IMG/VR virus record: IMGVR_UViG_3300034356_003109
DNA from: an uncultured virus (IMG/VR IMGVR_UViG_3300034356_003109)
Lineage: Duplodnaviria > Heunggongvirae > Uroviricota > Caudoviricetes
Length of the DNA: 20,000 bases
Reading direction: 5' to 3' (one strand)
Of this stretch, positions 3,689-17,833 are shown in pieces (the stretch's first letter is position 1; each line of letters begins with the position of its first letter). Under the pieces are notes generated by a model that was not told the DNA's origin, did not search any database, and saw only the letters and a program-made list of their open reading frames with translations. Made by a program: the position numbers and the translations under genes.

Positions 3689-5671
3689 TTATCTAATTGG
3701 ACATGCGCCACCGGCACATTCAGCCATATCTAGCATTTCAATGTTTCCTGATAGGATGGTAATTAAAGGCTTAACTTTAGCGTTGGCCGCTAAATACGCG
3801 GCTTCGTCAATTTCTTGATATGGAGCTTGTTTGAATCCATGATCCTTGAACAAAAGAAAGCTAACGCTCTTGATATTATTTTCGTAATTATCTTTTAGCC
3901 AAACTTTAAGAGACTCAAGTTCTTCTGGTTTGTAATAAGCAGTTACAGAAACAGCGTTATCTGACCAAATAGTTTGCAGCTTCTTAACCATATCAAGTTG
4001 CTTGATGACATCCATATCTTTTGTAAGGATAGATCCTTCAGGAGTCTTGCATGGGAAATACACAACAACGGTATCACGATTCTCAGTTCCATCAAAATTA
4101 ATAATGAACTCTACATGATAACCCATGTCTTTGCATGTTTGAACGAGACTGTCAGAGCTAGACATGCGTACTGTACGCATATAATATTCACTAAAAGCTG
4201 GATGAACGCCGGGAGTAGCTCCACCAAGTAAACTTAATGTTCCGCTGGGTTTGATGGTTGTAAGCTTAATGCTTTCAGGCCAACCACGATACTTACTCCA
4301 AGACTTATCAAAGTTGCGTAGAGCAACATAACAATCATCAAGCCAATCAAGCTTATCAAGAGACTGGCACACACCAGTAACGCCAAGGCCAAGGCGCATG
4401 TTCTTGTGGACAATACGATTAGTTTCTTCGTGTATGAAAGGTAACGCAGCAATAGCCTTTTGAGTTTTATAAAGAAGTTTTGCACAGTCAATTAATTCAT
4501 CTTTAGAGGTAATGTTGTTTAAATAAAGTTCAGAAAGATTGCAGCACTCATAATTTGCAAGGCTGATTTCAGCGCATGGATTTGTCATTTCACAATTATC
4601 TACATCTGTTGGATATAGAAGATTTTCAGAAATTGGCCCATCTTTAATGCGTCCAAATTTTTGAGAAAGAGGAAGATTAAAGAATCCATAAGGTTCACCA
4701 TTTGCATAACCTGAATCTTTATTTATTTCGTATCCATTTTTCCAAACCTCTTCAAGAACGTGATCATAGCTATCCGCATAGATGGTGTTGTTGCTCATTG
4801 CTCGCCAATTTGGGACGTTGCTAGAACCCCAATTCTTGGCGCGAAGATAAAGAATATCATCAGGATCGCCTAGAGCGATTTCCGCACTGCGCCGCACATT
4901 GCCAGCGACAACAACACTGCCAATAATATTGCAGATATCCAACACATCAATCGAGCGAAGTTTTTTGCCTTCGCGAGCTTGGAATATCTTTGTGATTTTA
5001 TCGATTCCGTCAATAAGGATTTGTGGACCACTAGCTTTTCCGCCAAAGCCCTTGATTGGTTCGCCGTAACCTCTGATGAGGATAGTTGAATACGAAAACG
5101 ATTTACCTGTAACGTAAAAAGCATCCAGAACTTTAGAAAGTAGATTAACCCAACCTTCGCGTTTATCTGGAACAATATAATCAGCGTCTTTAGTTGCTTC
5201 ATGAATAACATTTACACCTTTCTTGATCTTTGGGAGTTCGTGGACATCTTCACGACGAATACTATAACCTACACCGCCACCAAGCATTAGGTTCTCAAAG
5301 AGGAACAAAAAAGCCTTTGGCTCGCGCATTGCTGTTGCCCAGCAATTAAGAAGAGAATTCGCTCCAAAACGATCTACAGTTGAAGTGCCGAGTTGCCATA
5401 GCATTCGACCTGCAAAGTTACACTTTAAATTAAAAACGTAATCATAAATGCGTTCTGCTTCTTCTTTTGTATATTGTGCGCCAATTTTCTGTGCGCCATT
5501 GATACAACGTTCTACTGTTTCATTCCATTCTTCTGTCGTTCCATCTTCTTTTTGACGAGCATAAGTCCTTTTGTAGACAATATATCCAAGACCGCTAAAA
5601 CCCCAGTTGGGTTGCTTGTTTTTATATTGCGCCAAAAAAGAAGGAGACAGAATATTTAAATTATCGCTCAT
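3689..5671 (-). CDS. nrdJ: class II adenosylcobalamin-dependent ribonucleotide reductase (monomeric RTPR-like)
   Basis: YKRTYAR, GRMLW, NC, GGGVG, GNVRRSA, TNPCAE (thiyl-radical Cys), CCNLSE, TIKPSGT and C-terminal CAGGACPIR. Confidence 0.93.
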   Translation of the reverse strand: MSDNLNILSPSFLAQYKNKQPNWGFSGLGYIVYKRTYARQKEDGTTEEWNETVERCINGAQKIGAQYTKEEAERIYDYVFNLKCNFAGRMLWQLGTSTVDRFGANSLLNCWATAMREPKAFLFLFENLMLGGGVGYSIRREDVHELPKIKKGVNVIHEATKDADYIVPDKREGWVNLLSKVLDAFYVTGKSFSYSTILIRGYGEPIKGFGGKASGPQILIDGIDKITKIFQAREGKKLRSIDVLDICNIIGSVVVAGNVRRSAEIALGDPDDILYLRAKNWGSSNVPNWRAMSNNTIYADSYDHVLEEVWKNGYEINKDSGYANGEPYGFFNLPLSQKFGRIKDGPISENLLYPTDVDNCEMTNPCAEISLANYECCNLSELYLNNITSKDELIDCAKLLYKTQKAIAALPFIHEETNRIVHKNMRLGLGVTGVCQSLDKLDWLDDCYVALRNFDKSWSKYRGWPESIKLTTIKPSGTLSLLGGATPGVHPAFSEYYMRTVRMSSSDSLVQTCKDMGYHVEFIINFDGTENRDTVVVYFPCKTPEGSILTKDMDVIKQLDMVKKLQTIWSDNAVSVTAYYKPEELESLKVWLKDNYENNIKSVSFLLFKDHGFKQAPYQEIDEAAYLAANAKVKPLITILSGNIEMLDMAECAGGACPIR

Positions 5672-5681
5672 GGTAAAAAGT

Positions 5682-5691
5682 ATTATACACT
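5682..5691 (-). promoter_or_regulatory. putative internal promoter for nrdJ (AGTGTATAAT)
   Basis: Perfect TATAAT 10 nt upstream of the ATG at 5671, overlapping an AGTGTA motif. Confidence 0.45.
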
Positions 5692-6745
5692 AGATTTTAA
5701 AAATCTCTATGTCGTACTTTACCATACGTTCTACGAGGTTGTCAAAGGAAATTTTCGGATTCCAACCTAATTCTTTTCTGGCTGGAGTCGAGTCTCCCAA
5801 AAGAAGCTCAACTTCGGCGGGCCTGTAAAATTTAGGATTAATTTTAACTAAAATAGACGATTGAATTTCATTTTTAATGGCGTATTCAGTAGACACGCTC
5901 ATCTGTTCTTCTTGTCCGCATCCATGCCAAACACCTTCGATCCCGGCGCAAACAAAAGATTTATTAATGAATTCCCTAATTGTGTGTGTTTCGTTGCTTG
6001 AGAGAACGTAATCTTTTGGTTTTTCTTGATTCATTATTTTCCAAACGCCATCGACAAAATCTTCAGAATCCGACCAGTCTCTTTGAGCGTCTATGTTTCC
6101 GAGTTCAATTGGAGAGAATGGTTGATTGTTTTTAATAGCATGGTGTATGCGAGCAACACCTTTGCTGATTTTTCTAGTTACAAATTCTTCTCCGCGTTTA
6201 GTTCCTTCGTGATTAAAAAGAATGCCATGCACAGCGTATAGATTATAAGATTCACGATAAACTTTTACTAAATGGCGGGCAGCCGCTTTGCTTGCTCCGT
6301 ATGGGCTTCTTGGTTTAACTGGATGAATAATGTCTTGTGGGCTGTATTGAACATCTCCAAACTCTTCACTAGATCCAGCAGAATAAAAACGACACTTTGG
6401 TTGAAAACGACGAATAGCTTCAAGGCATCTTGCTACACCAGTAGCGTTGACATCGAAAGTTTGCAAAGGTATTTCCCAACTGCATCCAACAAAACTTTGT
6501 GCGCCAAAATTAATAAAATAGTCTGGTTGAATATCTCTTACAATATTGTCTAAACTTATAGAATCAGCAAGATCGCCATATACAAATTTAAATCTAGTAT
6601 TTTTAATGAATGCATTACAATTTATAAAATTAGGATTAGAGGTTCTTCGCATCATGCCATAAATTTGAGCGTCAGTATTCTTAAGCAAATATTCGCACAT
6701 GTTTGCGCCATCTTGTCCTAAAATTCCAGTTATAATTATTTTCAT
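5690..6745 (-). CDS. gmd: GDP-mannose 4,6-dehydratase
   Basis: ITGILGQDG, AQSFV, SSEEFG, PRSPYGASK (YxxxK), GILFNHE, FVTRKI, LGNIDAQRDW, RPAEVELLLGD. Confidence 0.95.
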   Translation of the reverse strand: MKIIITGILGQDGANMCEYLLKNTDAQIYGMMRRTSNPNFINCNAFIKNTRFKFVYGDLADSISLDNIVRDIQPDYFINFGAQSFVGCSWEIPLQTFDVNATGVARCLEAIRRFQPKCRFYSAGSSEEFGDVQYSPQDIIHPVKPRSPYGASKAAARHLVKVYRESYNLYAVHGILFNHEGTKRGEEFVTRKISKGVARIHHAIKNNQPFSPIELGNIDAQRDWSDSEDFVDGVWKIMNQEKPKDYVLSSNETHTIREFINKSFVCAGIEGVWHGCGQEEQMSVSTEYAIKNEIQSSILVKINPKFYRPAEVELLLGDSTPARKELGWNPKISFDNLVERMVKYDIEIFKI

Positions 6746-7185
6746 ATATTTTGGTATTTTATAACGTAATCAGTGCATATTCCATAACATATTGATAGAT
6801 CACCATCAAAACCTAGTTCTGGTAGTACGCAGATACTATTGGTAAATAATTTTTTATTTGGATAAGTCCAAATATATTTCTTACTTGTTAAAATCCAATC
6901 TTCAGTAGTATGCCAAAATACATTAAAATTATAATTTTTATCATTAAGCAATTTATAAAATGCTTCGCCGTTTTTAGCATGTAACCAAAATTGAGAATCA
7001 AATAAAAAATTATATTTTATTTCGTATGTAGGATTATCATGCCCTAAATACCATTTATCATTTATATGCCAAATATCAATTTCAACATCGTATCCTATAC
7101 CTAATGCATCATTGATATAATCTGGATGATTTTCTTTATCTTCATTAGGCCCATCTACATTACCTCTATGAGAAATAAATTTCAT
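6742..7185 (-). CDS. short GDPD/PLC-like phosphodiesterase-fold protein
   Basis: ISHRGN...EN...GYDVEIDIW...LGHD...WLHAKN...GICTD; only 147 aa. Confidence 0.7.
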   Translation of the reverse strand: MKFISHRGNVDGPNEDKENHPDYINDALGIGYDVEIDIWHINDKWYLGHDNPTYEIKYNFLFDSQFWLHAKNGEAFYKLLNDKNYNFNVFWHTTEDWILTSKKYIWTYPNKKLFTNSICVLPELGFDGDLSICYGICTDYVIKYQNI

Positions 7186-7203
7186 AACTTTTTAGTCTGT
7201 TAA

Positions 7204-8397
7204 TTAAATTTTTCCCCATTTTTCAATAGCTTCATAATATTCATTTGAATATTTTTTAGTAATAGATTGACTCATTGCTTTTGCGCCAGCCGTTGTTCCG
7301 TTAGGATGAGAAGTTATAGCTCCGCCAACATTAGCCATCCAATTGTTATGGCCGATTATAGAGCTGATATGATCAACTAAACCAGGATGCATTCCGCAAC
7401 TTAAAGCTGGTACAGCATTCAATTGATTCATATCAGAAATAATATTCTTCATGTTTTCTTCGTCAGTTTGCAAATATCCACCGATCATTCCAACATGAAG
7501 AGTCCCACATCCAGACATCGCGGCTAACTTGAATAGTAGTCTAGAATCTATTCTATATTGATGAGATTCAAAGTTAAGAACTCTATCTCCACTCTTCTGG
7601 AAATGAATCAATAAAGGTAAATTCAATTCTCGTAAAGACTTATAAACACCCATTCCACAATGAAAATTAGTATGAATTCCATTTCCACCTAAATCATGAA
7701 CAAGTTTAGCTTTGTTTAAAATAAAAGCAGGATCAGAATGAAGAGAAACGCAATAAAAAGTTTTGTATCCTCCGTCTCTAATTAAATTAGAGACTAGGTC
7801 AATTCTTTTTTCAAAACCACAGTGAGCGGCTGAACATAAAATTTCGTCTTCTTTTATGAAATTGCATCCGCCATCTAGTAATTTTTTTACTAGTTCTAAA
7901 TGTTTTTCTGCTGAAAGCCCTATCTTGGGCTTTGTTATTCCGCCAAAAATAACTTGATTATCTGGAATTCCGCAATGATTTCTTATTTCTTTAAGCCCTA
8001 TTTTAGGGCCAAGAAAACAGTTTTTCATTTTAGGCGTGAATTCAATGTCTAATAGATGGCAAGCTTGAACTTCATCAATGTCACATTGACCGCCCATAAC
8101 CTGAACTAAAAGATGAGAAATACCATCTTCTTTAAAATTGATATTGCTTTCTGGAAAAGCTACGCAAACAATTCCTTCTTTTTTCTTCTTAAGTTCTATT
8201 TCATCGCCAAGAATCAAACAACTATGTTTCTCAAACATCTCTTCTGTTTCCATTTCGGCTCTGCATTTAGGATTACCAATTGATTGACCAACAGCTAAAT
8301 TAAATGCTGCGTCAGCTACTGAGGTTTTTCCTTGTAAGAAATATTTTACAATAAAATAGTCTTCTTTATTAACGGATGTTACGAATAAGTTTTTCAT
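7204..8397 (-). CDS. RuBisCO-like protein (form IV-like, predicted non-carboxylating)
   Basis: GPKIGL, ITKPKIGLS (K175/K177 equivalents), GGCNFIKEDE (carbamylated Lys and Mg-binding D/E), LHVG, PALSCGMHPG, VGGAITSHPNG..AGAKAM. Confidence 0.9.
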   Translation of the reverse strand: MKNLFVTSVNKEDYFIVKYFLQGKTSVADAAFNLAVGQSIGNPKCRAEMETEEMFEKHSCLILGDEIELKKKKEGIVCVAFPESNINFKEDGISHLLVQVMGGQCDIDEVQACHLLDIEFTPKMKNCFLGPKIGLKEIRNHCGIPDNQVIFGGITKPKIGLSAEKHLELVKKLLDGGCNFIKEDEILCSAAHCGFEKRIDLVSNLIRDGGYKTFYCVSLHSDPAFILNKAKLVHDLGGNGIHTNFHCGMGVYKSLRELNLPLLIHFQKSGDRVLNFESHQYRIDSRLLFKLAAMSGCGTLHVGMIGGYLQTDEENMKNIISDMNQLNAVPALSCGMHPGLVDHISSIIGHNNWMANVGGAITSHPNGTTAGAKAMSQSITKKYSNEYYEAIEKWGKI

Positions 8398-9112
8398 TGT
8401 TTGAGTGTTTTAAATATGTTTGTAAATCTTCTGGAGTTCCTATCGGAAAATGTTCATTAAAAAAATAATGTCCTATTTTCTTTCCCTTATTTATTAAATA
8501 ATTATATGATGGCGCTATATAAAATTCATTTAAAGTTCTATCGTTTTTTTCAAACATTTCTTCACAAGAAGAAAATAAATCAGCAGCTTTTTTCCAGTAA
8601 TGAAAACCGTTTGAAGCAAATTCACTAAGAACCACTTTTTCTTTAACCTCAGTGACATCGCAAAAATCGTTTAATTTTACAAAACTGTTTTTTGGAGATC
8701 TAGAAAAAAAGGTTCCAAGCAAACCGTCGTAATCGTATTTGTGAGCGTATTGTCTAAATTTTTCAACATTGTAGTTACATATAACTTGATCGCAATTTGT
8801 TAATATTAATTCTTCGTTCAGATTTATATTGTTTTTTGCTTCATATGAAGTTTTTGCGGGTCCATCTTTCAATCCATCAATAATATAGAATTCAACACGA
8901 CAAGGAAGTTGAAGATTAATTATTTTTTTAGAAATAGAGAATTTTTCTTCATGCTCTTTCAAGATGCATAAAATAAATTTATCGCTTTTTTCTTGATTCA
9001 AATTCTTAATAACAAGTTCAATCATGTAGCTTCCGTTGACATTTATCAATGGCTTGGGTACTGGTGAATTGAATCTTTTGCCCAGTCCAGCGCATGGTAT
9101 TAAATAATTCAT
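8369..9112 (-). CDS. sugar-phosphate nucleotidyltransferase (NTP_transferase / GT-A fold)
   Basis: LIPCAGLGKRF...PKPLI, GPAKT, NCDQ, VKEK, NEFYIAPSYN, IGTPEDL. Confidence 0.85.
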   Translation of the reverse strand: MNYLIPCAGLGKRFNSPVPKPLINVNGSYMIELVIKNLNQEKSDKFILCILKEHEEKFSISKKIINLQLPCRVEFYIIDGLKDGPAKTSYEAKNNINLNEELILTNCDQVICNYNVEKFRQYAHKYDYDGLLGTFFSRSPKNSFVKLNDFCDVTEVKEKVVLSEFASNGFHYWKKAADLFSSCEEMFEKNDRTLNEFYIAPSYNYLINKGKKIGHYFFNEHFPIGTPEDLQTYLKHSNNEKLIRNIR

Positions 9113-9438
9113 GATTTAAGTTGAAAACATCTCTTGTCTTGCGCAGATGGGGTTTTTACGCAAATAATATTACAATCTTCAAGGAAAGTTGGATCAGAAA
9201 TTTCATAAGGTTCTAATATAAAAATATCGCCTTCTTCTAGAATTTTATCTTGCATAATCATTTTTCCGCTAATTAAAAGATTTATTTCTTTAACTATCGA
9301 GTGGTAATGATATTCGCAAATTTCATTTCTTTTGTGATTTTTGAATGAGACTTCAAAATCTTTTGTTTTATAAGCAGTTGGTTCAAAATTACCTACAAAC
9401 CATCCGCCTTTCATGTCTGATATTTTATACGTTTGCAT
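9109..9438 (-). CDS. cupin-fold protein (putative sugar isomerase/epimerase)
   Basis: GWFVGNFEP N-terminus; HYH-x4-E..LISG metal motif; GDIFILEP second cupin motif. Confidence 0.75.
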   Translation of the reverse strand: MQTYKISDMKGGWFVGNFEPTAYKTKDFEVSFKNHKRNEICEYHYHSIVKEINLLISGKMIMQDKILEEGDIFILEPYEISDPTFLEDCNIICVKTPSAQDKRCFQLKS

Positions 9439-10153
9439 ATTTATTATTAATAAATACTAAATCTTCTTCTATTCCGAGTTCATTTGATATAGAGCTTACT
9501 AATTGAAAATCTTGTTTTTCTAGAAATTCAATTAATTCATTTTTTATTGTTGACTTGTCATATATTTTTGAAAGTCCAACTTCTGTATGAATAGCTTTAA
9601 TATTTTTAAGATGAAAATCAAAACTCTTCAAGACTTCTAATTCGGCACCTTGAACATCCATCCATATTAAATCAATTTGATTTATTGAATTATTTCTTAA
9701 AAAAGAATCCCCTCTTATACATTCCACTTCAATTTCTTCTTGTATATAAGATTTGCCATAATAATGATTATTATTTGCTTTATATAAGGAACTGGCTCCT
9801 ATATTGCCATTAATGACTTTATGAAATTTAATATTGCCATCGATTAATCCAATTGCTTTTTCATAAAAAATTATATTATTTCTATCTTTTATATTTTTTT
9901 TGCACCATTCTGCTGTTTCTGGAATAGGTTCGAAACAATGAATTTTAGAATTCGGAAACCAATCTGACAATTCTAAACTTTGACAAGCGTCTCTAGATCC
10001 AATATCTAAAACATGATTTATGTCTTCTAAATCTATTTTATTTTCAATTTTTTTTATAAAATCAAATGTGTAGCTTAATACAGAACCTTCCCAGTTATTA
10101 TATTTTCTTTCTTTATTTGAGGAAAATGCATTTTTATTATATATAGTTTTCAT
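9425..10153 (-). CDS. FkbM-family methyltransferase
   Basis: VLDIGS, CFEP, GASSL, IDLIWMDVQGAELEVL, IHTEV, Y.....ELIEFL...F. Confidence 0.9.
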   Translation of the reverse strand: MKTIYNKNAFSSNKERKYNNWEGSVLSYTFDFIKKIENKIDLEDINHVLDIGSRDACQSLELSDWFPNSKIHCFEPIPETAEWCKKNIKDRNNIIFYEKAIGLIDGNIKFHKVINGNIGASSLYKANNNHYYGKSYIQEEIEVECIRGDSFLRNNSINQIDLIWMDVQGAELEVLKSFDFHLKNIKAIHTEVGLSKIYDKSTIKNELIEFLEKQDFQLVSSISNELGIEEDLVFINNKYANV

Positions 10154-10746
10154 ATTATATGATCGATTGCTGATTTATCAGCTTTGTATGATGATAAAAA
10201 TTTATTGTACTTTGTCCAAAAAATGTCATTTTCATCATTTATTCTATTTAAAAAAAATGTAAATTCTTCATTTTTTAATTGCATTTTATAAAAATTTTCA
10301 AGTATCATCTGTTCTGCAAATGCGTAGTTCATTTTTTCGTTTTTACTCCATAGTTTTATCATTAAATCTATATCGCCAGCCATTAAATAATCGCAAATAT
10401 ACCCTCCTTCATGGTTATGCCAAAAGAAAAAATTAATTTTATGGGTAAAAATATCAAGTAATTTATTTATATTTTTCGCTACATAATCACTTCTTATTTT
10501 TAAAACATTTTCAAATCCCAACTCTTTAGCTTTTAATAATCCATTCTCAGTTGTTATTTGTTGATAAAATAAATTTCCTACTCCAGAGTTTCGAGGTTTT
10601 TCATTAAAAATAACGTTATCATTTTTTAAATATTTGTTTTCATCCCCTTTCCATGTGGAAAAAATGCAATTTTGATTTTCCGTGGATTTTTTAATTTCTT
10701 CCACTTTTACAGATGGACCTTGGATTACAATACACCATTTTTTCAT
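10150..10746 (-). CDS. WavE-like LPS/glycan biosynthesis protein (putative glycosyltransferase)
   Basis: IVIQGP, STW, GN..YQ..TT.NGL..A, LKIRSD, D....GD, AEQ motif series. Confidence 0.65.
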   Translation of the reverse strand: MKKWCIVIQGPSVKVEEIKKSTENQNCIFSTWKGDENKYLKNDNVIFNEKPRNSGVGNLFYQQITTENGLLKAKELGFENVLKIRSDYVAKNINKLLDIFTHKINFFFWHNHEGGYICDYLMAGDIDLMIKLWSKNEKMNYAFAEQMILENFYKMQLKNEEFTFFLNRINDENDIFWTKYNKFLSSYKADKSAIDHII

Positions 10747-11456
10747 TAAATTTTATCTCTTAGGCTGTTTGATATCTTTTTTATTTTTTCTAATTCAATT
10801 TTGTATTCTGAAAAGTTCCATTTTCCTTTTACTATTGCTGTGGCAATATAAGGCCATATATTAGAATCATAATGTCCGCCTCTTTTATTTTCATTATCGA
10901 AATGAATTAATCCTTGAATTACATTTTTTTGTGATATTTCTTGGCTTTTAATTTCTAATTCCCAAATTGAAGATTTGGGGAATAATTTTAAAAAATCAAT
11001 AAATTTTTGCTTTTTCCATATCGTGGGTTGAACAGCAAAAAAATCTGAAGATCCATTTGTTATTTCATATAAACAATCTATTTCTTTGATTTTTTGTACT
11101 TTTAAATTTCCAGTTCTGCATAGTCTAATAAATGAATATTTACTGTTAGAAAGAAAATTTATATAATCATTTATTTTTTTAAAATCCGGTTTGCTGTATA
11201 AAAACATATCTTCATGTTGATAAAATATATATTCGCTATTTATCTTTTCTAAACATTGAATAAGTCTTTCTGAATAAATCAAAGAATCATCATATATAAT
11301 ATGTTGATTTTTTTCATTAAATTTTTTATTAGCAAGAATACAAATTTCATCTTTATCAATTCCATATCTTTCTTGTTCTTCTAAGAATATTTCTAATACA
11401 TCAAAGTATTCTGAATTTGTATAAACTATATCTTTAATTATTGATTGCATGTTCAT
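10746..11456 (-). CDS. putative GT-A-like glycosyltransferase
   Basis: YSERL..CL..I..EYIFYQHEDMFL, IRL, QPTIWKK, WELE, AIVKGKW, plus operon context. Start set at 11456 (ATGA overlap). Confidence 0.55.
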   Translation of the reverse strand: MNMQSIIKDIVYTNSEYFDVLEIFLEEQERYGIDKDEICILANKKFNEKNQHIIYDDSLIYSERLIQCLEKINSEYIFYQHEDMFLYSKPDFKKINDYINFLSNSKYSFIRLCRTGNLKVQKIKEIDCLYEITNGSSDFFAVQPTIWKKQKFIDFLKLFPKSSIWELEIKSQEISQKNVIQGLIHFDNENKRGGHYDSNIWPYIATAIVKGKWNFSEYKIELEKIKKISNSLRDKI

Positions 11457-12145
11457 ACCCATACACACGTTCTATTTGTAAAAAATCCATTCGCATAATA
11501 ATCTCTTTTAAAACCTTCAGATTGTAACCAAGGATTTAATGTTGATCCTATATCTAAGTAAATGTTTTTTTTGTTAGATTCGTAAAGTTGATGAGCTAAT
11601 AAATTTCCAAAAGGTCCAGCGCAAAAAAGAAATAGTTTATTTGTAAGATTTTTTTGTTTTATTTCTTCAATTAATTTATAATTATTGACCCATGCGCTAA
11701 ATCCTATAGGATAAAACTGTTCAATCTTAAACGGTAGATTATCTATTTTTGATTTTTCATTCGCTATTAAATGGATATCATAATTTTTATATTCTTTAAC
11801 AAATGTTTCTTTATAAATTTCATAATTTGAATTTACAAATACATTTGCAAAAGTTAAATGATCATAATCTTGACCAGAAAAATTAATCATTTTTTGAGAT
11901 TCGCCACCTTGACAACAAGGGCAAGATACGCCCACATAATAGTTGGGATCTTTATATTGGAAAGATTCAATTAGTTTATTTTTGAAAAAAGATGGAGTCA
12001 ATGGTGTTTTTTCAAATTCTCTATTATTTAAATTAACATCATTTATAATAGCCCATTCGCCGTCAGCATATTTAGAAAAAGAAAAAGGTGATCCTTTCTT
12101 AAAAAGATCAAATATTCTATAAATTTCTGATTCAAAGTTTTTCAT
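11453..12145 (-). CDS. GT-D fold (DUF1792-like) putative glycosyltransferase
   Basis: FSFSKYADGE...LFCAGPFG..L...YLDIGS.L.P resembles the GT-D R[FY]GDGE / LDIG motifs. Confidence 0.6.
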   Translation of the reverse strand: MKNFESEIYRIFDLFKKGSPFSFSKYADGEWAIINDVNLNNREFEKTPLTPSFFKNKLIESFQYKDPNYYVGVSCPCCQGGESQKMINFSGQDYDHLTFANVFVNSNYEIYKETFVKEYKNYDIHLIANEKSKIDNLPFKIEQFYPIGFSAWVNNYKLIEEIKQKNLTNKLFLFCAGPFGNLLAHQLYESNKKNIYLDIGSTLNPWLQSEGFKRDYYANGFFTNRTCVWV

Positions 12146-13133
12146 TACTGAGTATTGTTAAAATCTTTTTTGCACTTTTACCGTTTCCGTATGGACATTT
12201 CTTAGATATTAGAAAATTATTATTGATTTTCAAAAAATGGTCTTGCAAATCTTCTGGTTTTTGGCACAAATAAATATGTCCAGAATGTATACCTTCTGGT
12301 CTTTCAGTTGTTTTTCTACAAACAATTATCTTTTTGTTAAAAAAAGAAGCTTCTTCCTGAATTCCTCCTGAATCTGTTATTACAAATTTACAATCTTTTA
12401 ATATACATATTAATTCTGAATGTTGTAAAGGATCGATTTTTTTAATGTGTTTATAATTATTAGCTTCAGATTTAATAATGGGATTTGGATGAATTGGATA
12501 TATGAATTGTATATCTTTATTTTTTTCGGCTATTTTATCTATTTCTAAAAGCCAATTTTTTATTATTGGTAGATTTTCATTTCTATGTAAAGTGATCAAG
12601 ACTTTATTATTGTAGCTAATATTATTTTTGAACTTAACCAAATTGTCTAATGAAGTGTTTCCAACAACATATATTTGACCTTTTACTTTCTCTTTCTTTA
12701 GATTTTTTGCCGATAGTTTTGTTGGGCATAAGTTAATATCAGCTATTCTTGAAACAATTTGCCTGTATCCTTCTTCTGGAAATGGATTTTCTAAATCATA
12801 AGTTCTAAGACCTGATTCTAAATATATGATTTTTTTCTTCAAGTGATAAGCGACTATAGACGTTGCAGCTACGGTTGCGGTATCTCCTTGAATAAGAATA
12901 GCATCAAATTGAGAAATTATAGATTCTGTCTTTTTGAAAATTTGTTCGAAAATACTATTTAATCGATTTGAACAATTACTTTCTATATCTACAGAAAAAT
13001 CATTATCACCAAAATCAATAATGTTAGTGTGTTGTTTTACAAATAAAGTTTTTATCTGATTATTTGAAGCGGTTATAACAGGTTTAATTTTAAGAAATTC
13101 AGGTCTTGTGCCAAAAATAGCAAGGATTTTCAT
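12132..13133 (-). CDS. wecB: UDP-N-acetylglucosamine 2-epimerase (non-hydrolysing)
   Basis: FGTRPE..K, QH, QGDT, ESGLRT..L..PFPEE..R, VGNT..D, TLHR.EN, TDSGGIQEEA, TERPE, PYGNG. Confidence 0.93.
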   Translation of the reverse strand: MKILAIFGTRPEFLKIKPVITASNNQIKTLFVKQHTNIIDFGDNDFSVDIESNCSNRLNSIFEQIFKKTESIISQFDAILIQGDTATVAATSIVAYHLKKKIIYLESGLRTYDLENPFPEEGYRQIVSRIADINLCPTKLSAKNLKKEKVKGQIYVVGNTSLDNLVKFKNNISYNNKVLITLHRNENLPIIKNWLLEIDKIAEKNKDIQFIYPIHPNPIIKSEANNYKHIKKIDPLQHSELICILKDCKFVITDSGGIQEEASFFNKKIIVCRKTTERPEGIHSGHIYLCQKPEDLQDHFLKINNNFLISKKCPYGNGKSAKKILTILSNEKL

Positions 13134-13870
13134 AGTTCGTTTATGTATTTAAATCCCTTGTTTTTATAATGCACCAAATTTCTTCCAAAATGACTTCCGT
13201 GATAATTACAGGAAATACCTACGGAATCCACTCCGAGTTTCCAAGCTAAATCTCTCTTGCTTCCCCACATCTCTGGATCATTTATTGGATGAGGTGGAAC
13301 ATATGTATTTAAATTTAAATACTTCTGTATTGCGTAAGAAAAATGAACGTCTTCTCCAGAAAGATAATGAAGTGGAAGTTCTGCTTCTCTCCAATATGCT
13401 CCAAGCCATTCTCTTTTAAAGAACCAACTATGACCTACTATATCGACTTTCTTTGATTGTTCGTTTGGATTATCCCATCCATGACGATCATAATTTCTAT
13501 ATTCAAGATCTTTAAAAATAACGCCTATAGTACCCAGCAAGCCTTCATGTTCTTGAATCGTATTGTAGCAATTTTCTAACCATTTTTTACCAGGAATCGT
13601 GTCATCATCAAAAATACAAACGTATTTTGTTCTACAGTTTAAAGCATAAGCGAACCGAGACCAAACTCCAAAATTTGCATTTGATATGGCTGTAGCGCAA
13701 TTATTTGCTACTTCTAAATCTAGAGGTTTAAAATTTTCTAATTCTCCTTTATTCTGCCAAATGAAAATATTTTTAGGTTGCAAAGTCTGATTAGCTAACG
13801 CTTCATATTGCATTCTTGCTGCGTGAGGTCTTTTAAACCAATTAAATATTACAGATATATCGTTATTCAT
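13130..13870 (-). CDS. GT-A fold glycosyltransferase (GT2-like)
   Basis: N-terminal SVI....KRP, FDDDTIPG DxD motif, GEDVHFS. Confidence 0.8.
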   Translation of the reverse strand: MNNDISVIFNWFKRPHAARMQYEALANQTLQPKNIFIWQNKGELENFKPLDLEVANNCATAISNANFGVWSRFAYALNCRTKYVCIFDDDTIPGKKWLENCYNTIQEHEGLLGTIGVIFKDLEYRNYDRHGWDNPNEQSKKVDIVGHSWFFKREWLGAYWREAELPLHYLSGEDVHFSYAIQKYLNLNTYVPPHPINDPEMWGSKRDLAWKLGVDSVGISCNYHGSHFGRNLVHYKNKGFKYINEL

Positions 13871-14730
13871 ATTTTTTCCCAGAAAGTTAAAGCTGCTTTA
13901 TAGCATTTTTCTTTAAATTCGTTAATTCCAATTTTAGATATTTCATTTAAACATCCTATTTTATTTTGTTTAGAAGTGAGAATTAGCGTTCCACATAGAA
14001 CTGCTTCTGCAACTGATCGGCAAAACGGTTCATTAAGATTAGGATTGTAAAACATGTATTTATATTTATTATAAATAGTTGGCATTTCTTCATATTTAAC
14101 TAATCCTAGATATTCTATGTTTTTTATAGAACTGCATAAATGATATAAAATGTTGTTGTCTGTCCATCCAGCAACAACGAATTGTTGATTCGGATTCGCC
14201 AAAGCAAAATCAAAAAATTCAAACGCTCCTTTCAGTGGATGCATATAACCTGAGTATAAAATTTTCTCTTCTCTCTCTAAATTTAAATTTCTAAAATTAA
14301 GACAATCTATTGGATCATATATAATTTCTACATTTTTAAAAATATCTCCATATTTTTCTTTAAAAAAAGAAGCATGAAAATCACTTAAAAAGATACTTTT
14401 AATACATGATCCAAATAACTTTATCCTATCTTCTTGTTTAAGATATTCATTTGAATCGTGTTCTAGTCTTACATGATATTTATGTTTAGAAATTTCATCT
14501 ATCAAACTTGTATTTTTAAAATATAAAGAACATAGATTTGATGTTATAAGAATATCAAAGTTATGAATATTGATTGAAGAATTATATGTGTCATGATTCA
14601 GATTCAGTATTTTATACCCAAGAAGCTTTCCTTGATCTATTATTATCTTGTCGCTTCTTTGTGCGCCACCTGGAGCTTGATCTAAATCATAGTCAGATAA
14701 CCATAGTATTTTTTGGTTGACATTTATCAT
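13867..14730 (-). CDS. GT-B fold glycosyltransferase (GT4-like)
   Basis: GGAQ near the N-terminus, G.MH..KG, YLG.V.YEEMP.IYN, EPFCRSVAEA (E-x7-E). Confidence 0.85.
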   Translation of the reverse strand: MINVNQKILWLSDYDLDQAPGGAQRSDKIIIDQGKLLGYKILNLNHDTYNSSINIHNFDILITSNLCSLYFKNTSLIDEISKHKYHVRLEHDSNEYLKQEDRIKLFGSCIKSIFLSDFHASFFKEKYGDIFKNVEIIYDPIDCLNFRNLNLEREEKILYSGYMHPLKGAFEFFDFALANPNQQFVVAGWTDNNILYHLCSSIKNIEYLGLVKYEEMPTIYNKYKYMFYNPNLNEPFCRSVAEAVLCGTLILTSKQNKIGCLNEISKIGINEFKEKCYKAALTFWEKI

Positions 14731-15180: not shown

Positions 15181-15224
15181 AAATGAACAAGACTCATAAA
15201 TTTATAATACGAAGAAGAAAAAAA

Positions 15225-15812
15225 ATGATTTCAAAAGAATTACCTTTAATATTCGGTATTGCTGGCGTAGCAAGATGCGGCAAAGACACGCTTGGAAAAC
15301 ACCTCATAAGTAAACTTAATAAATCTGGATTCCCAGCGATGAATATCTCATTCGCTATGGAATTAAAAAGAGACTTAGAGCCTTTCTTAAAAGAAAAACT
15401 CAATGTTTCAGCTTTTACAGAAATTAATTCTGAAAAAGATCTTATTCGACCAATCCTTGTTTGCTGGGGAACTGACGTTTGCAGAAAAATTGATCCTGAT
15501 TATTGGATAAAAAAAGTTGAAAAGCAGATAAAATCTTCTATAAACAATAAAATCATAGTTGTCGTCACAGACGTTCGTTACGAAAACGAGTCTAAATGGA
15601 TAAAAGAAAACGGCGGCTTCATGATTCATCTTAGCAGAATGGGTCAAAAACCTTCTAACTTTCAAGAAAGATTAAACGATCCGATTGTAAAACGAAACTC
15701 AGACTACACAATCAAGTGGAAAACGTTTACCGATGAAAAAGAAACTTGCAATTATCATCTAAGCAAGTTATTCTATCAGAAAGGATGGTCAACATATGGA
15801 GACTTTAAGTGA
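15225..15812 (+). CDS. deoxynucleoside monophosphate kinase
   Basis: GIAGVARCGKDT P-loop, SFA..LK, R..L..WGTD..R...PDYWI, VVTDVRYENE..WIK..GG. The start could also be 15183. Confidence 0.85.
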   Translation: MISKELPLIFGIAGVARCGKDTLGKHLISKLNKSGFPAMNISFAMELKRDLEPFLKEKLNVSAFTEINSEKDLIRPILVCWGTDVCRKIDPDYWIKKVEKQIKSSINNKIIVVVTDVRYENESKWIKENGGFMIHLSRMGQKPSNFQERLNDPIVKRNSDYTIKWKTFTDEKETCNYHLSKLFYQKGWSTYGDFK

Positions 15813-16401
15813 TTTAGATTTAATCAACAGCATTAAAAACAAGAATAAAATAAATGAATGTCTACAAGAACTTATAGACAGGCATTCGGGAATTTACTTG
15901 GACATAGTAAATTCTTTTCTCAAGAACTGTAACAACGATTCATTGAGACATGAAATAATAAACGACAAAGAATACGCAATTTATAATTCCGTTCTTAAGT
16001 ACGACGAGAATCGCGGCACTAAGTTTTCTACATTTCTCGGTAATGAAGCTAAATGGATATGTTTAAACGCTTCTAATAAGAATAAAAAATATGTAGAATT
16101 AAACGACAACACTTACGATTTTGAATGCATAAAAGATGAGTACGAACAAACTTCTATAAATCTTCAAGATCAAATACTGAAAGATTTTAATGAACACATA
16201 TCTAAACACCCAGACAAGCGAATACAAAAAATCTTTTCAATGCGTTATTCTGGCAATAAAAAACTTATTCCTTGGAGGAAGATAAGTAAAACAATGAATT
16301 TAAGCATTCAAGGATGCATAAATATACACAACGCAGCTTTAAATTCTATTTCTAAAAACATAAGATCCAAATATGAAATTATTAGTCAACGCTCCAATTA
16401 A
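15796..16401 (+). CDS. phage-encoded sigma70-family RNA polymerase sigma factor (regions 2 and 4)
   Basis: SD.DLI, L.ELI.RH, YDENRGTKFSTFL (region 2.3), and C-terminal HTH IFSMRY...WRKISKTMNLSIQ....IH..AL. Confidence 0.85.
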   Translation: METLSDLDLINSIKNKNKINECLQELIDRHSGIYLDIVNSFLKNCNNDSLRHEIINDKEYAIYNSVLKYDENRGTKFSTFLGNEAKWICLNASNKNKKYVELNDNTYDFECIKDEYEQTSINLQDQILKDFNEHISKHPDKRIQKIFSMRYSGNKKLIPWRKISKTMNLSIQGCINIHNAALNSISKNIRSKYEIISQRSN

Positions 16402-17461
16402 CGCACTATCTTTCGGCAACGTATCTGTAAACATTCTTAGAGAATTGTTTAAAAAAAATATTGATTTAATATTTTTCCCTATCGGCGACAAGGCCGAAAT
16501 GGATGCTTATGATAAGATTGAACCTGATTTTGTAAAATATTTACAAGCAGCCACAAACGATAGGTACAGTAAAATTTCAAAAGATATTCCTTCTTTAAAA
16601 TTGTGGCATATTTTTGGCAGTGAAACTAGATATTCAAAGAATCAATCTTTGTTTACTTTTCACGAAGTCTCCGAAGTCACAAACATAGAAAAGAATTTAT
16701 TAAAATTACAAGACAATATCTTTGTAAGCTCTAATTACACCAAAAACATTTTCAATCTTAACGGATTAGACAATGTAACTCATGTGCCACTAGGTTTTGA
16801 CAACGACTTTCAAATAACCAATAAAACTTATTTACAAGATAAAATTCATTTCGGAATTCTAGGGAAGTTTGAAAATAGAAAAAATACCGCTCGCATCATA
16901 AAGTCTTGGCTTAAGCTTTTTGGTAATAAGCCAGAATACCAACTTAGCTGCGCGATCACCAATCCTTTCCTCGATAAAGCTAGATTCCAAAACGAACTAT
17001 TAAAAGTTTTAGAAGGAAAACAGTACAATAATTTAAACTTCGTCCCATACATGCAAACAAACAGCGAAGTCAATGACTATCTAAACAGCATAGATATCGA
17101 TCTTGGCGGATTGAGTGGAGCGGAAGGGTGGAATCTTCCATCATTCAACGCTACTGCGCTTGGCAAATGGAGTGTCGTTATAAATGCAACAGCGCATAAA
17201 GACTGGGCGACCAAGGATAATAGTATCCTAATAGAACCTTCTTCTCTAAAGGATTGTTATGATGATGTCTTCTTTAAGAAAGGGCAGTCCTTTAATCAAG
17301 GACAATTCTTTGATATTTCTGATCAAGAAATGGATGACGCTATTCTAAAGTCTTTATCTTATGCAAAAACACCAAATCCAGAAGGTTTAAAGCTTCAAAA
17401 ACAATTTACTTACCAAAAAACAGTTGAGACAATACTGTGTGCCATAAGTAGCCAGATGTGA
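16373..17461 (+). CDS. GT-B fold glycosyltransferase (GT4-like)
   Basis: VSSNY, VPLGFD, GKFENRK, SGAEGWNLPSF, TAHKDW. Confidence 0.8.
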   Translation: MKLLVNAPINALSFGNVSVNILRELFKKNIDLIFFPIGDKAEMDAYDKIEPDFVKYLQAATNDRYSKISKDIPSLKLWHIFGSETRYSKNQSLFTFHEVSEVTNIEKNLLKLQDNIFVSSNYTKNIFNLNGLDNVTHVPLGFDNDFQITNKTYLQDKIHFGILGKFENRKNTARIIKSWLKLFGNKPEYQLSCAITNPFLDKARFQNELLKVLEGKQYNNLNFVPYMQTNSEVNDYLNSIDIDLGGLSGAEGWNLPSFNATALGKWSVVINATAHKDWATKDNSILIEPSSLKDCYDDVFFKKGQSFNQGQFFDISDQEMDDAILKSLSYAKTPNPEGLKLQKQFTYQKTVETILCAISSQM

Positions 17462-17554: not shown

Positions 17555-17833
17555 ATGTATAATAAACTAGTATATAAATATCAAGTAACAGAAGACGGTT
17601 TAACATTCAACGTCGAACTCGCTGGAAAATCTAAAGAAGATGTAAAAATCTTTAAGGAAGATTATTCTATAGCCATCAACGTTAATGATAATAAATACAG
17701 AATTAGCTATGAAGATTATATTCTAAGATCAAAATATGATTTTGATAATCCGAAAGCTAAGATGAAAAACGGCCTTTTAACCATCACCGTTCCACAAATT
17801 AAAAGAGCAGAAAAACAAATTGAAATAGAATAA
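17555..17833 (+). CDS. small heat shock protein (Hsp20/alpha-crystallin), minimal form
   Basis: VELAGKSKEDVKI and AKMKNGLLTITVP...KQIEIE (IxI motif). Confidence 0.88.
   Translation: MYNKLVYKYQVTEDGLTFNVELAGKSKEDVKIFKEDYSIAINVNDNKYRISYEDYILRSKYDFDNPKAKMKNGLLTITVPQIKRAEKQIEIE

Follow-up and report, generated by a model that had tools for sequence, protein, structure and literature searches.

What is a protein with the RuBisCO fold doing in a phage gene island for glycan synthesis? The question is raised by a RuBisCO-like protein (RLP) gene in a 20,000-nucleotide stretch of DNA from an uncultured virus of the Caudoviricetes (IMG/VR record IMGVR_UViG_3300034356_003109; the whole stretch is called the window below), where it lies between genes for a nucleotidyltransferase (NTase) and a miniature GDPD-like protein (p147), with a small cupin gene (p109) on the far side of the NTase. 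To our knowledge, all characterised RLPs act in catabolism or salvage. The original prediction held that this one is instead anabolic and non-carboxylating and is tied, within a glycan context, to the neighbouring NTase, cupin and phosphoesterase, and its core is strongly supported here by a linkage conserved in phages, bacteria and archaea and by three kinds of gene fusion. We consider it probable that the RLP enolises a phosphorylated ketose and acts on it as an isomerase or epimerase, in this way supplying glycan synthesis with an unusual sugar in nucleotide-activated form.

Active site and phylogenetic position of the RLP

We aligned 51 RuBisCO-superfamily sequences, namely 41 relatives of the window RLP together with Form III, Form II/III, MtnW and OiaX references whose identities were checked by NCBIfam or by record annotation (the MtnW and OiaX references came from annotated plasmids). 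Thirteen rows were omitted from alignment and tree: the window's own contig (L001), the near-duplicates L011, L013 and L017, the truncated L014, L016, L046, L048 and L053, and the re-fetched L054-L057. Positions are given in RuBisCO numbering, and the role of each catalytic residue is the one that we take to carry over from RuBisCO to the RLPs. K175, K177, K201, D203, E204, H327, S379, G381 and G403/404 are retained in the window RLP and in 41/41 RLPs of its clade, and the substitutions E60G, T65N, N123G, H294Q, K334Y and G380C are just as uniform (41/41); two further substitutions of the window RLP, R295K and H298D, are found in 39/41 and 37/41, respectively. Form III and Form II/III controls retain the complete RuBisCO catalytic set in the same alignment. 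Because of this residue pattern across the 41 sequences, the enolising machinery, the P1 phosphate site and part of the distal site appear to be kept, and the residues for CO2 addition and hydration appear to be lost.

In the IQ-TREE phylogeny of the 51 rows, the 41 relatives form one clade (support 100/100) apart from MtnW, OiaX, Form III and Form II/III, spanning RLPs of phages, the Candidate Phyla Radiation (CPR), SAR11, DPANN and other bacteria. One subclade unites DPANN and SAR11 sequences (96/95) and a second those of phages, CPR, Verrucomicrobiae and Bacteroidota (99/98), the latter holding the window RLP and a sequence from a metagenome-assembled genome (MAG) of Beckwithbacteria (L025). 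The RLP thus falls outside the MtnW and OiaX clades and not in a characterised methionine-salvage clade, a placement that would have spoken against the original prediction.

Judged by its taxa and by their published description, the clade appears to be the one reported by Jaffe, Castelle, Dupont and Banfield in 2019 (PMC6389311), who found about 80 'Form IV-like' RLPs in phages (Myoviridae), together with Beckwithbacteria, and left their function open; new branches of RuBisCO homologues had also been noted in ocean data in the 2007 Global Ocean Sampling paper. The RLPs of the 2019 study resemble ours in being highly divergent, in lying on contigs of T4-like or large phages, in grouping with Beckwithbacteria and in conserving the catalytic residues in part. 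No gene neighbourhood is described in the available portion of that paper (PMC6389311); the present analysis contributes the cassette and its fusions, the members from SAR11 and DPANN, and the variants without an RLP. Phage RLPs as such are not new, having been on record since 2019. Our literature search, with subscription journals outside its coverage, found no paper in which an RLP is connected with glycan synthesis, with glycosyltransferases or with a nucleotidyltransferase.

Profile scores agree with this placement. The window RLP stays below the NCBIfam RuBisCO cut-offs (TIGR03326, 151 against 497 bits; NF003252, 137 against 438; NF010002, 83 against 489), which the controls L049-L052 pass, and these scores and the missing catalytic residues argue against a bona fide RuBisCO of forms I-III. 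MtnW (2,3-diketo-5-methylthiopentyl-1-phosphate enolase) was also rejected as an identity, given 125 bits against a cut-off of 409 for NF007095 and 105 against 514 for TIGR03332, and with the Bacillus velezensis MtnW outside the 100/100 clade, although the long branch of that reference (2.37) makes its exact position in the tree unsure. MtnW and the window RLP share the RuBisCO fold, K175, K201, D203, E204 and the P1 glycine site, and the second-best PDB match of the window RLP is an MtnW structure (2oek, E 1e-26); MtnW, however, sits on a separate branch and has K, V and L at N123, K177 and H327, where the window clade has G, K and H. Whereas mtnX adjoins the gene at the MtnW reference locus, no mtnA, B, K, X or D was found among the 27 window proteins or among 98 neighbour proteins from nine loci. 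The third candidate, OiaX (3-oxo-isoapionate-4-phosphate decarboxylase of D-apionate catabolism), is an RLP whose substrate is a branched or keto sugar-acid phosphate and illustrates the range of the fold beyond ribulose bisphosphate. It was rejected on its score (94 bits against a cut-off of 700), on the separate 100/100 clade and on gene content, since the OiaX loci examined carry a four-carbon acid-sugar kinase, of which there is none in the window, and a NanR regulator, likewise absent here.

Conserved linkage and gene fusions

The window proteins were compared by tblastn with 48 loci that carry a clade RLP, 18 of them from IMG/VR (the window's own contig and three near-duplicates included) and 30 from species genomes. 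The distance from the RLP to an NTase homologue is at most 7 kb in 42/48 loci and at most 150 nt in 25/48, p109 homologues are present in 24/48 and p147 homologues in 27/48, and the RLP loci show 14 distinct gene arrangements. None of the three partners was found by the same scan in the five true-RuBisCO loci L049-L053. Among the six loci without an NTase, the RLP is cut by the contig end in L016, L046 and L048, and less than 1.3 kb of flank is available on one side in L023 and L040; the sixth, L021, is taken up below. The linkage to an NTase that the original prediction expected among homologues is thus conserved.

Fusions join the same partners in single chains. P0253 (667 aa) consists of an RLP 46% identical to that of the window followed by a PF00483 domain, L018 encodes an NTase-cupin fusion of 353 aa, and L027 a fusion of an NTase paralogue with a GDPD (505 aa). 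The ESM Atlas holds a cluster of 82 members combining RuBisCO_large with NTP_transferase, and P0253 confirms here that such a fusion exists.

The RuBisCO fold was also met in other fusions. P0309 (583 aa) carries a TIR_2 domain at the N-terminus of a complete RuBisCO large-subunit-like protein that shares 29% identity with the window RLP; its TIR part matches PADLOC TIR models (ThsB, SAVED-TIR and Argonaute-associated TIR; E 1e-5 to 1e-7), and it may be a defence-type fusion. P0288 and P0299 (726 and 742 aa) combine IF-2B, an e2b2-type isomerase, with RuBisCO and would join two steps of the AMP pathway in a single chain, and P0393 (1265 aa) combines RuBisCO with an APH-type phosphotransferase.

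The partner proteins

The NTase carries the motif GxGxR-F...PKP, of which G9, R13, F14 and K20 are conserved across 22 sequences, as is the nearly invariant G11. By its Pfam gathering score and the GxGxR signature it is a predicted sugar- or small-molecule-phosphate nucleotidyltransferase. It matches phrog_3980 (E 9.8e-47), gives weak full-length matches to the HddC (E 1e-4), GlmU, MurU and IspD models as well as weak IspD-, MobA- and CobY-type matches at its N-terminus, and reaches no NCBIfam equivalog. A search for longer proteins with this domain found 11, four double NTases and seven HAD-NTase fusions, with neither the RLP-NTase nor the DHBP synthase-NTase fusion of the ESM Atlas recovered there. 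Among its structure neighbours in the ESM Atlas are fusion clusters with RuBisCO_large, DHBP synthase and HAD; the DHBP synthase-NTase cluster (229 members, mostly viral) is a lead only, taken from the Atlas listing. A predicted complex of the RLP with the NTase scored 0.00 against a mark of 0.32, which counts neither way.

The cupin p109 has the motif HxH(x4)E(x6)G, with H44, H46, E51 and G58 conserved in an alignment of 19 homologues. Its profile matches cupin-type phosphomannose isomerase, quercetinase and KdgF in the PDB, and its AlphaFold2 (AF2) model (pLDDT 93.7) gave 113 Foldseek matches at E <=1e-3, every displayed one a cupin-type beta-barrel. Pfam scores of relatives stay under the cut-offs (one homologue, Cupin_7, 24.6 bits against 27; gp207 of cyanophage Bellamy, Cupin_2, 22.7 bits); motif 1 and the modelled double-stranded beta-helix fold place p109 in the cupin superfamily.

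In p147, H6, R7, E18, N19, E35, D37, H49, D50, H69, K71 and H92 are invariant among 19 aligned homologues, forming an HR..EN..ExD..HD..K pattern that we take to be the catalytic pattern of GDPDs, with the corresponding residue roles. The protein has no Pfam match even at E 10 and does not reach the PF03009 gathering score. The top PDB matches of the 19-homologue profile are nevertheless all GDPDs, if weak (3i10, E 0.0015; 7e0v, E 0.0023), and VIA-align of the AF2 model (pLDDT 96.9) returned GDPD-family entries (GDPDs and related phospholipases D) for 31 of the 33 top matches, the other two being a beta-1,3(4)-glucanase, with Z-scores of 8.0-10.8 and about 140 of the 147 residues aligned. The model thus points to a complete GDPD barrel pared down to 147 aa.

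Two known systems resemble the NTase-cupin pair. In type II phosphomannose isomerase/GDP-mannose pyrophosphorylase an NTase is fused to a cupin, and the GDP-heptose pathway runs through GmhA, HddA, GmhB and HddC. The former architecture is mirrored in the L018 fusion, cupin-type phosphomannose isomerases are among the best structural matches of p109, and the window NTase aligns, weakly, over its full length with HddC. The window proteins nonetheless score far below the cut-offs of these families, and we know of no RLP or GDPD in either pathway. Mutants of Pasteurella multocida in bcbE and bcbG lack a fructose side chain (PMC13552107); the name BcbE is absent among the 120 NTase homologues listed and among the ESM Atlas names.

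Cassette versions and their carriers

The cassette occurs in two versions. In the first, seen in loci of phages, CPR and other bacteria, the RLP is accompanied by the NTase, the cupin and the mini-GDPD; in the second, that of SAR11 and DPANN, the cupin is missing and there is a second NTase paralogue in which the GxGxR motif is lost (AGKDKNF or AGPNINF). This paralogue adjoins p147 in SAR11 and a full-length PF03009 GDPD in L030 and L044, and the DPANN loci without p147 have a full-length PF03009 GDPD nearby (L030, L044 and L027).

We clustered 584 open reading frames (ORFs) from 45 loci (44 and the window). Gmd is present in 14/45 loci, FkbM in 8/45 and p198 homologues in four, so that FkbM, p198, Gmd and WecB are variable accessories outside the conserved core; a DUF7796-like family of about 258 aa occurs in 18 loci, the window not among them. 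In the Pfam scan of the 98 neighbour proteins, glycan genes prevail (GT2, GT4, WavE, Bac_transf, RmlC, GT17, GT25, GT61, DUF4422, FkbM and carbamoyltransferase). The carriers include single-amplified genomes of SAR11, with the cassette beside pheST and lepA, and a 372-kb cellular contig, with Bac_transf, RmlC and GT2. The woesearchaeotal locus L030 also encodes, at 5064-6866, a 600-aa fusion of a GHMP kinase with an NTP-transferase that diverges from the RLP, and holds a B12-binding radical-SAM gene, an FkbM gene and a weakly WavE-like gene.

Cyanophages with the cassette but not the RLP

Tblastn of the RLP against 50,697 deposited phage records gave nothing at E 1e-5, nor did megablast of the window. 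Isolated cyanomyophages do, however, have NTase, cupin, mini-GDPD and DUF7796-like genes without an RLP, p147 being carried by 17 Synechococcus myophage records and p109 by three. In Bellamy, a p109 cupin gene and a DUF7796-like gene come after an NTase-RpiB fusion (gp206; 30% identity with the window NTase, E 6e-27). S-SM2 and Bellamy also share the order double NTase, GT61, class II aldolase-family protein, mini-HAD, p147 and DUF7796-like protein, both halves of the double NTase being homologous to the window NTase, and in S-CAM9 and B3 a HAD_2-NTase fusion stands beside p147. RpiB and the class II aldolase family convert phosphosugars through an enediol(ate); HAD_2 comprises phosphatases and phosphomutases. 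Because these phages keep the partners with RpiB, an aldolase or a HAD protein in the place of the RLP, the NTase family, the mini-GDPD and a putative transferase appear to be the constant parts, with the RLP slot apparently filled elsewhere by other phosphosugar-tailoring enzymes. Large 'LPS' (lipopolysaccharide) gene clusters without an assigned use were noted in S-SM2 and other cyanophages by Sullivan et al. (2010).

Proteins of about 100 aa in S-SM2 (L065, 5693-6004 and 7334-7663) and Bellamy (L064, 6696-7004) were deposited as 'phosphoheptose isomerase'. Their sole Pfam match is to a PNKP-type HAD phosphatase, weak and below the cut-off (E 6e-5 to 4e-3), and the deposited names may be wrong.

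Gene content of the window

Genes were chosen from among the ORFs of at least 80 aa, and 27 window proteins were assigned to families with Pfam, NCBIfam and PHROGs (Table 1). Between 1 and 14730 all genes so taken are on the minus strand and packed almost without gaps. Every gene named in the original prediction was recovered on that strand where it had been placed, and the 29-nt overlap of the RLP and NTase genes (8369-8397) and the 18-nt gap between the RLP and p147 (7186-7203) are exact. The labels fared unevenly: 'cupin' and 'GDPD-like' stand on motif and fold, the latter also on profile matches, whereas the similarity behind 'WavE-like' for p198 is weak and below the cut-off. The stated absence of methionine-salvage and Calvin-cycle genes also held, none of these families being found among the 27 proteins.

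Table 1. Features of the window
Feature	Position	Strand	Evidence or remark
Class II ribonucleotide reductase (RNR), a methyltransferase, UvsX-like N-terminus at window edge		-	3' of Gmd in transcription order
Gmd, GDP-mannose 4,6-dehydratase family short-chain dehydrogenase/reductase	5690-6745	-	PF16363, 353.8 bits; variable accessory
p147, mini GDPD-like	6742-7185	-	Motif, profile and fold; no Pfam match
RLP, 397 aa	7204-8397	-	PF00016 RuBisCO_large, E 3e-28, 99.4 bits (cut-off 30.1)
NTP-transferase, 247 aa	8369-9112	-	PF00483, 27.7 bits (cut-off 21.2)
p109, small single-domain cupin	9109-9438	-	Motif and fold; no Pfam match
FkbM-family methyltransferase	9425-10153	-	PF05050, 68.2 bits; TIGR01444, 86 bits; variable accessory
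p198, weak WavE/DUF7796-like similarity	10150-10746	-	WavE, E 0.02, 14.6 bits (cut-off 27); variable accessory
p230 (weak GT-D) and p240 (no family)	within 10746..14730	-	
WecB, UDP-GlcNAc 2-epimerase	12132-13133	-	TIGR00236, 229.8 bits (above cut-off 210); rest of glycan island
GT2	13130-13870	-	Rest of glycan island
GT1	13867-14730	-	Rest of glycan island
T4-type deoxynucleoside monophosphate (dNMP) kinase	15183-15812	+	
Further glycosyltransferase	16373-17461	+	
Phage Hsp20	17555-17833	+	
Collagen/S74 tail fibre	far window end	-	

A T4-like phage origin is supported by the predicted UvsX-like N-terminus, class II RNR, T4-type dNMP kinase and S74 tail fibre, as well as by the 100% identity of the window to a 70,941-bp contig of IMG/VR. 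The GC content falls to 0.243 at 10001-12000 (p198, p240 and p230) against 0.39-0.40 around the RNR gene (4001-6000), and this drop suggests that the phage gained the glycan island independently of the replication genes. The Gmd protein scores 337 bits with TIGR01472, under the cut-off of 415. The similarity of p198 to the DUF7796-like family is weak (hhalign E 8e-4, probability 24%, 57 columns), and p198 may be a glycosyl or phospho-sugar transferase. For p240, kinship to the NTase paralogue (hhalign E 0.61) and to the DUF7796-like family (E 0.24) was tried and rejected, neither comparison giving similarity. PADLOC, run on 12 window proteins, assigned no defence family to the RLP, NTase, cupin or p147, its sole match being a weak one of FkbM to mad2.

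A second 29-nt overlap joins the RNR and methyltransferase genes (3689-3717), and the other junctions of the run are mostly overlaps of 1, 4, 14 or 16 nt, two having an 18-nt gap. The DUF5824 protein encoded at 2304-2771 is similar, in its C-terminal part, to the final portion of a PHROG 'cytidyltransferase' family as well.

Proposed role and alternatives

From the gene identities, active-site pattern, conserved linkage and fusions observed here, we infer the reaction type, substrate, order of steps and acceptor as follows. The RLP, with a carbamylated lysine and Mg2+, would enolise a phosphorylated 2-ketose and reprotonate it to an epimer or a carbonyl-shifted isomer, a C-C bond being neither made nor cleaved; its most plausible substrate would be a pentulose or hexulose mono- or bisphosphate from pentose-phosphate or glycolytic pools. 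The NTP-transferase would attach a nucleoside monophosphate to the resulting sugar or ketose phosphate, the cupin p109, a putative metal cupin resembling phosphomannose isomerase, would carry out an aldose-ketose or epimer step, and p147 a phosphoester or phosphodiester step, the four proteins acting as one unit. The activated unit would then be used by the transferases of the island (p198, p240, p230, GT2 and GT1), with possible O-methylation by FkbM, in a glycan built together with UDP-ManNAc (WecB) and GDP-6-deoxyhexose (Gmd).

This role is preferred because of the active site, the linkage, the fusions, the glycan neighbours, the replacement of the RLP in its slot, and two precedents. The DeepYkr RLP of Rhodospirillum rubrum is a 5-methylthioribulose-1-phosphate isomerase whose partner cupin is a methylthioxylulose-5-phosphate (MTXu-5-P) sulfurylase (PMC4958253). 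Like the enzyme proposed here it enolises and isomerises a ketose 1-phosphate and works with a small cupin, making it the best mechanistic model for an RLP followed by a cupin, but it serves catabolic sulfur salvage, with no nucleotidyltransferase or glycan genes in the system as the available text presents it, and the DeepYkr group lies outside our tree sample. T4-like phages, in turn, convert ribulose 5-phosphate to UDP-arabinofuranose by way of an isomerase, a kinase, a bisphosphate, a HAD phosphatase and a MurU-like NTase (arabinose-5-phosphate isomerase, the AfhE kinase/NTase and the AfhF HAD phosphatase; RB69, DLP3 and HY126; PMC13326640). There too a pentulose phosphate is diverted to an NTase, and HAD, kinase and NTase partners recur in variants of our cassette; the isomerase is, however, of the SIS type, not an RLP with a cupin, no GDPD-like protein appears in the available account of the pathway, and its target is DNA.

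Several observations weigh against the proposed role. The alignment column of H294 differs by two residues between MAFFT and phmmer, the latter pairing a nearby His with the MtnW His, and the separateness of the clade holds against the references included in the tree, IV-Photo, IV-DeepYkr, IV-AMC and IV-GOS not being among them. L021, with full 7-kb flanks, has no NTase, and its RLP stands beside arginase, ornithine cyclodeaminase and permease genes; this RLP may serve another purpose or be the product of a recent translocation. (The L021 RLP gene lies at 6986-8176, the permease is of the amino-acid type, and another neighbour is a 555-aa protein with a methyltransferase domain.) On the Verrucomicrobiae chromosome locus L026, the RLP, NTase and cupin are together, but the neighbours named by Pfam are a lactonase and a fatty-acid desaturase, not glycan genes. 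Several of the 'cellular' matches are MAG contigs that resemble phage: a gp32-like gene lies next to the cassette in L022 (a Saprospirales bin), and the RLP of L023 (a Phycisphaerales bin) is almost the same as that of the IMG/VR phage locus L018 (branch lengths 0.05 and 0.13). Finally, no sugar kinase or phosphomutase that would make an anomeric phosphate is present in the window, and the proposed role leaves a phosphodiesterase in nucleotide-sugar synthesis unaccounted for.

In one alternative, the product would be no anomeric glycosyl donor but a CDP-ribitol- or CDP-xylulose-like donor of a ketose or polyol phosphate, the NTase acting on the terminal phosphate of the RLP product and the unit being transferred as a phosphodiester decoration, as in teichoic acids, with the GDPD-like enzyme trimming or editing the diester. 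S. pneumoniae AbpA offers a CDP-xylulose precedent. Neither a phosphomutase nor an anomeric kinase belongs to the core, the partner phosphodiesterase comes from a family that cleaves polyol-phosphodiesters, and the weak N-terminal IspD-, MobA- and CobY-type matches of the NTase, together with the fusion of its relatives to the ribulose 5-phosphate enzymes RpiB and (as the Atlas lead only) DHBP synthase, point the same way. The weak full-length similarity to the sugar-1-phosphate enzymes HddC, GlmU and MurU is equally good, however, the HAD_2-NTase fusions and neighbouring GHMP kinases fit an anomeric route, and no CDP-alcohol or LicD/TagF-type phosphotransferase was seen in the scanned loci, so that we regard this version as unlikely.

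That the activated sugar instead hypermodifies the phage's own DNA, by glycosylation of a modified cytosine as in RB69 and DLP3 with NDP-arabinose, seems rather improbable. The island does lie among genes of DNA metabolism (the class II RNR, UvsX-like and T4-type dNMP kinase genes, with the glycosyltransferase at 16373-17461), T4-like phages do build NDP-arabinose from ribulose 5-phosphate for DNA arabinosylation, and a dNMP kinase is also listed in the table of arabinosylation gene sets in the part of the paper available (PMC13326640). The same cassette is nevertheless found in cellular genomes (the SAR11 single-amplified genomes and the 372-kb contig), WecB, Gmd, at least five transferase-like genes and two methyltransferases are typical of a heteropolysaccharide, and no cytosine-modifying synthase was seen within the 20-kb window.

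A more elaborate scheme, in which the cassette converts ketoses into glycosyl donors by phosphate migration, is distinctly improbable when all its steps are taken jointly. The RLP may fix the stereochemistry of a ketose 1-phosphate, which has the substrate geometry native to the RuBisCO fold and from which the first NTase may make an NDP-1-ketose; the GDPD-like enzyme may then, through the anomeric C2-OH, form and open a 1,2-cyclic phosphodiester and so move the phosphate to the anomeric carbon, and a second NTase, or the same one, may yield an anomeric NDP-ketose for DUF7796/WavE-like transferases. Such a scheme would explain the constant phosphodiesterase partner, the paired or doubled NTases (in SAR11 and DPANN loci and in double-NTase proteins of 497-528 aa, a 522-aa one of S-SM2 among them) and the fusion of an NTase paralogue to a GDPD.

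Salvage of by-products of S-adenosylmethionine (SAM) is very unlikely. In that case the RLP would recycle ketose 1-phosphates derived from methylthioadenosine (MTA) or 5'-deoxyadenosine, left by the methyltransferases and radical-SAM enzymes of the island. The combination of RLP, cupin and phosphoesterase mirrors the enolase, dioxygenase and phosphatase of methionine salvage, as far as the accessible text describes them (PMC3698126), the RLP-cupin shunt is a further parallel (PMC4958253), and methyltransferase and radical-SAM genes are frequent neighbours. Against this stand the low MtnW scores and the active site given above (Gly in 41/41 at position 123, where MtnW has Lys, and the invariant K177, absent in MtnW), as well as the lack of MtnA, MtnB, MtnK, MtnX and MtnD among the window and neighbour proteins scanned. 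Moreover, FkbM-type methyltransferases give S-adenosylhomocysteine, not MTA, and the near-universal NTase partner and the RLP-NTase fusion would be left unexplained.

A bona fide carboxylase, or a member of a CO2-incorporating AMP/nucleoside pathway boosting host carbon metabolism, is extremely unlikely: the protein belongs to the RuBisCO large-subunit superfamily and its best NCBIfam match is the type III model, but that match is far below the cut-off, N123, H294, K334 and E60 are all replaced, no PRK, e2b2 or DeoA gene lies nearby, and the e2b2-RuBisCO fusions P0288 and P0299, with their strong RuBisCO_large and RuBisCO_large_N matches, are just 29% identical to the window RLP.

Implications

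The conserved cassette gives a new functional context to a known but unexplained clade of RLPs, and in its outline the proposed interpretation has support. If the RLP does help to synthesise an activated sugar, that would be a new function for the much-studied RuBisCO fold, and the phage 'Form IV-like' clade, unexplained since 2019, would gain a testable job; the four cassette proteins are small and apparently soluble, which makes direct testing in vitro feasible. Were ketoses converted into donors by phosphate migration, a variable phosphosugar-tailoring enzyme (RLP, RpiB, class II aldolase or HAD) would precede a constant back end of NTase, mini-GDPD and transferase, and that design would amount to a modular viral and cellular system for rare sugars. 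The carriers are ecologically important, comprising SAR11, CPR bacteria, DPANN archaea and the abundant T4-like phages of aquatic habitats. If the proposed role is true, an unknown sugar on the carriers' surfaces, or one that phages place on infected cells, virions or DNA, would matter for phage adsorption and grazing, and for immune-like recognition, in marine and lake waters.

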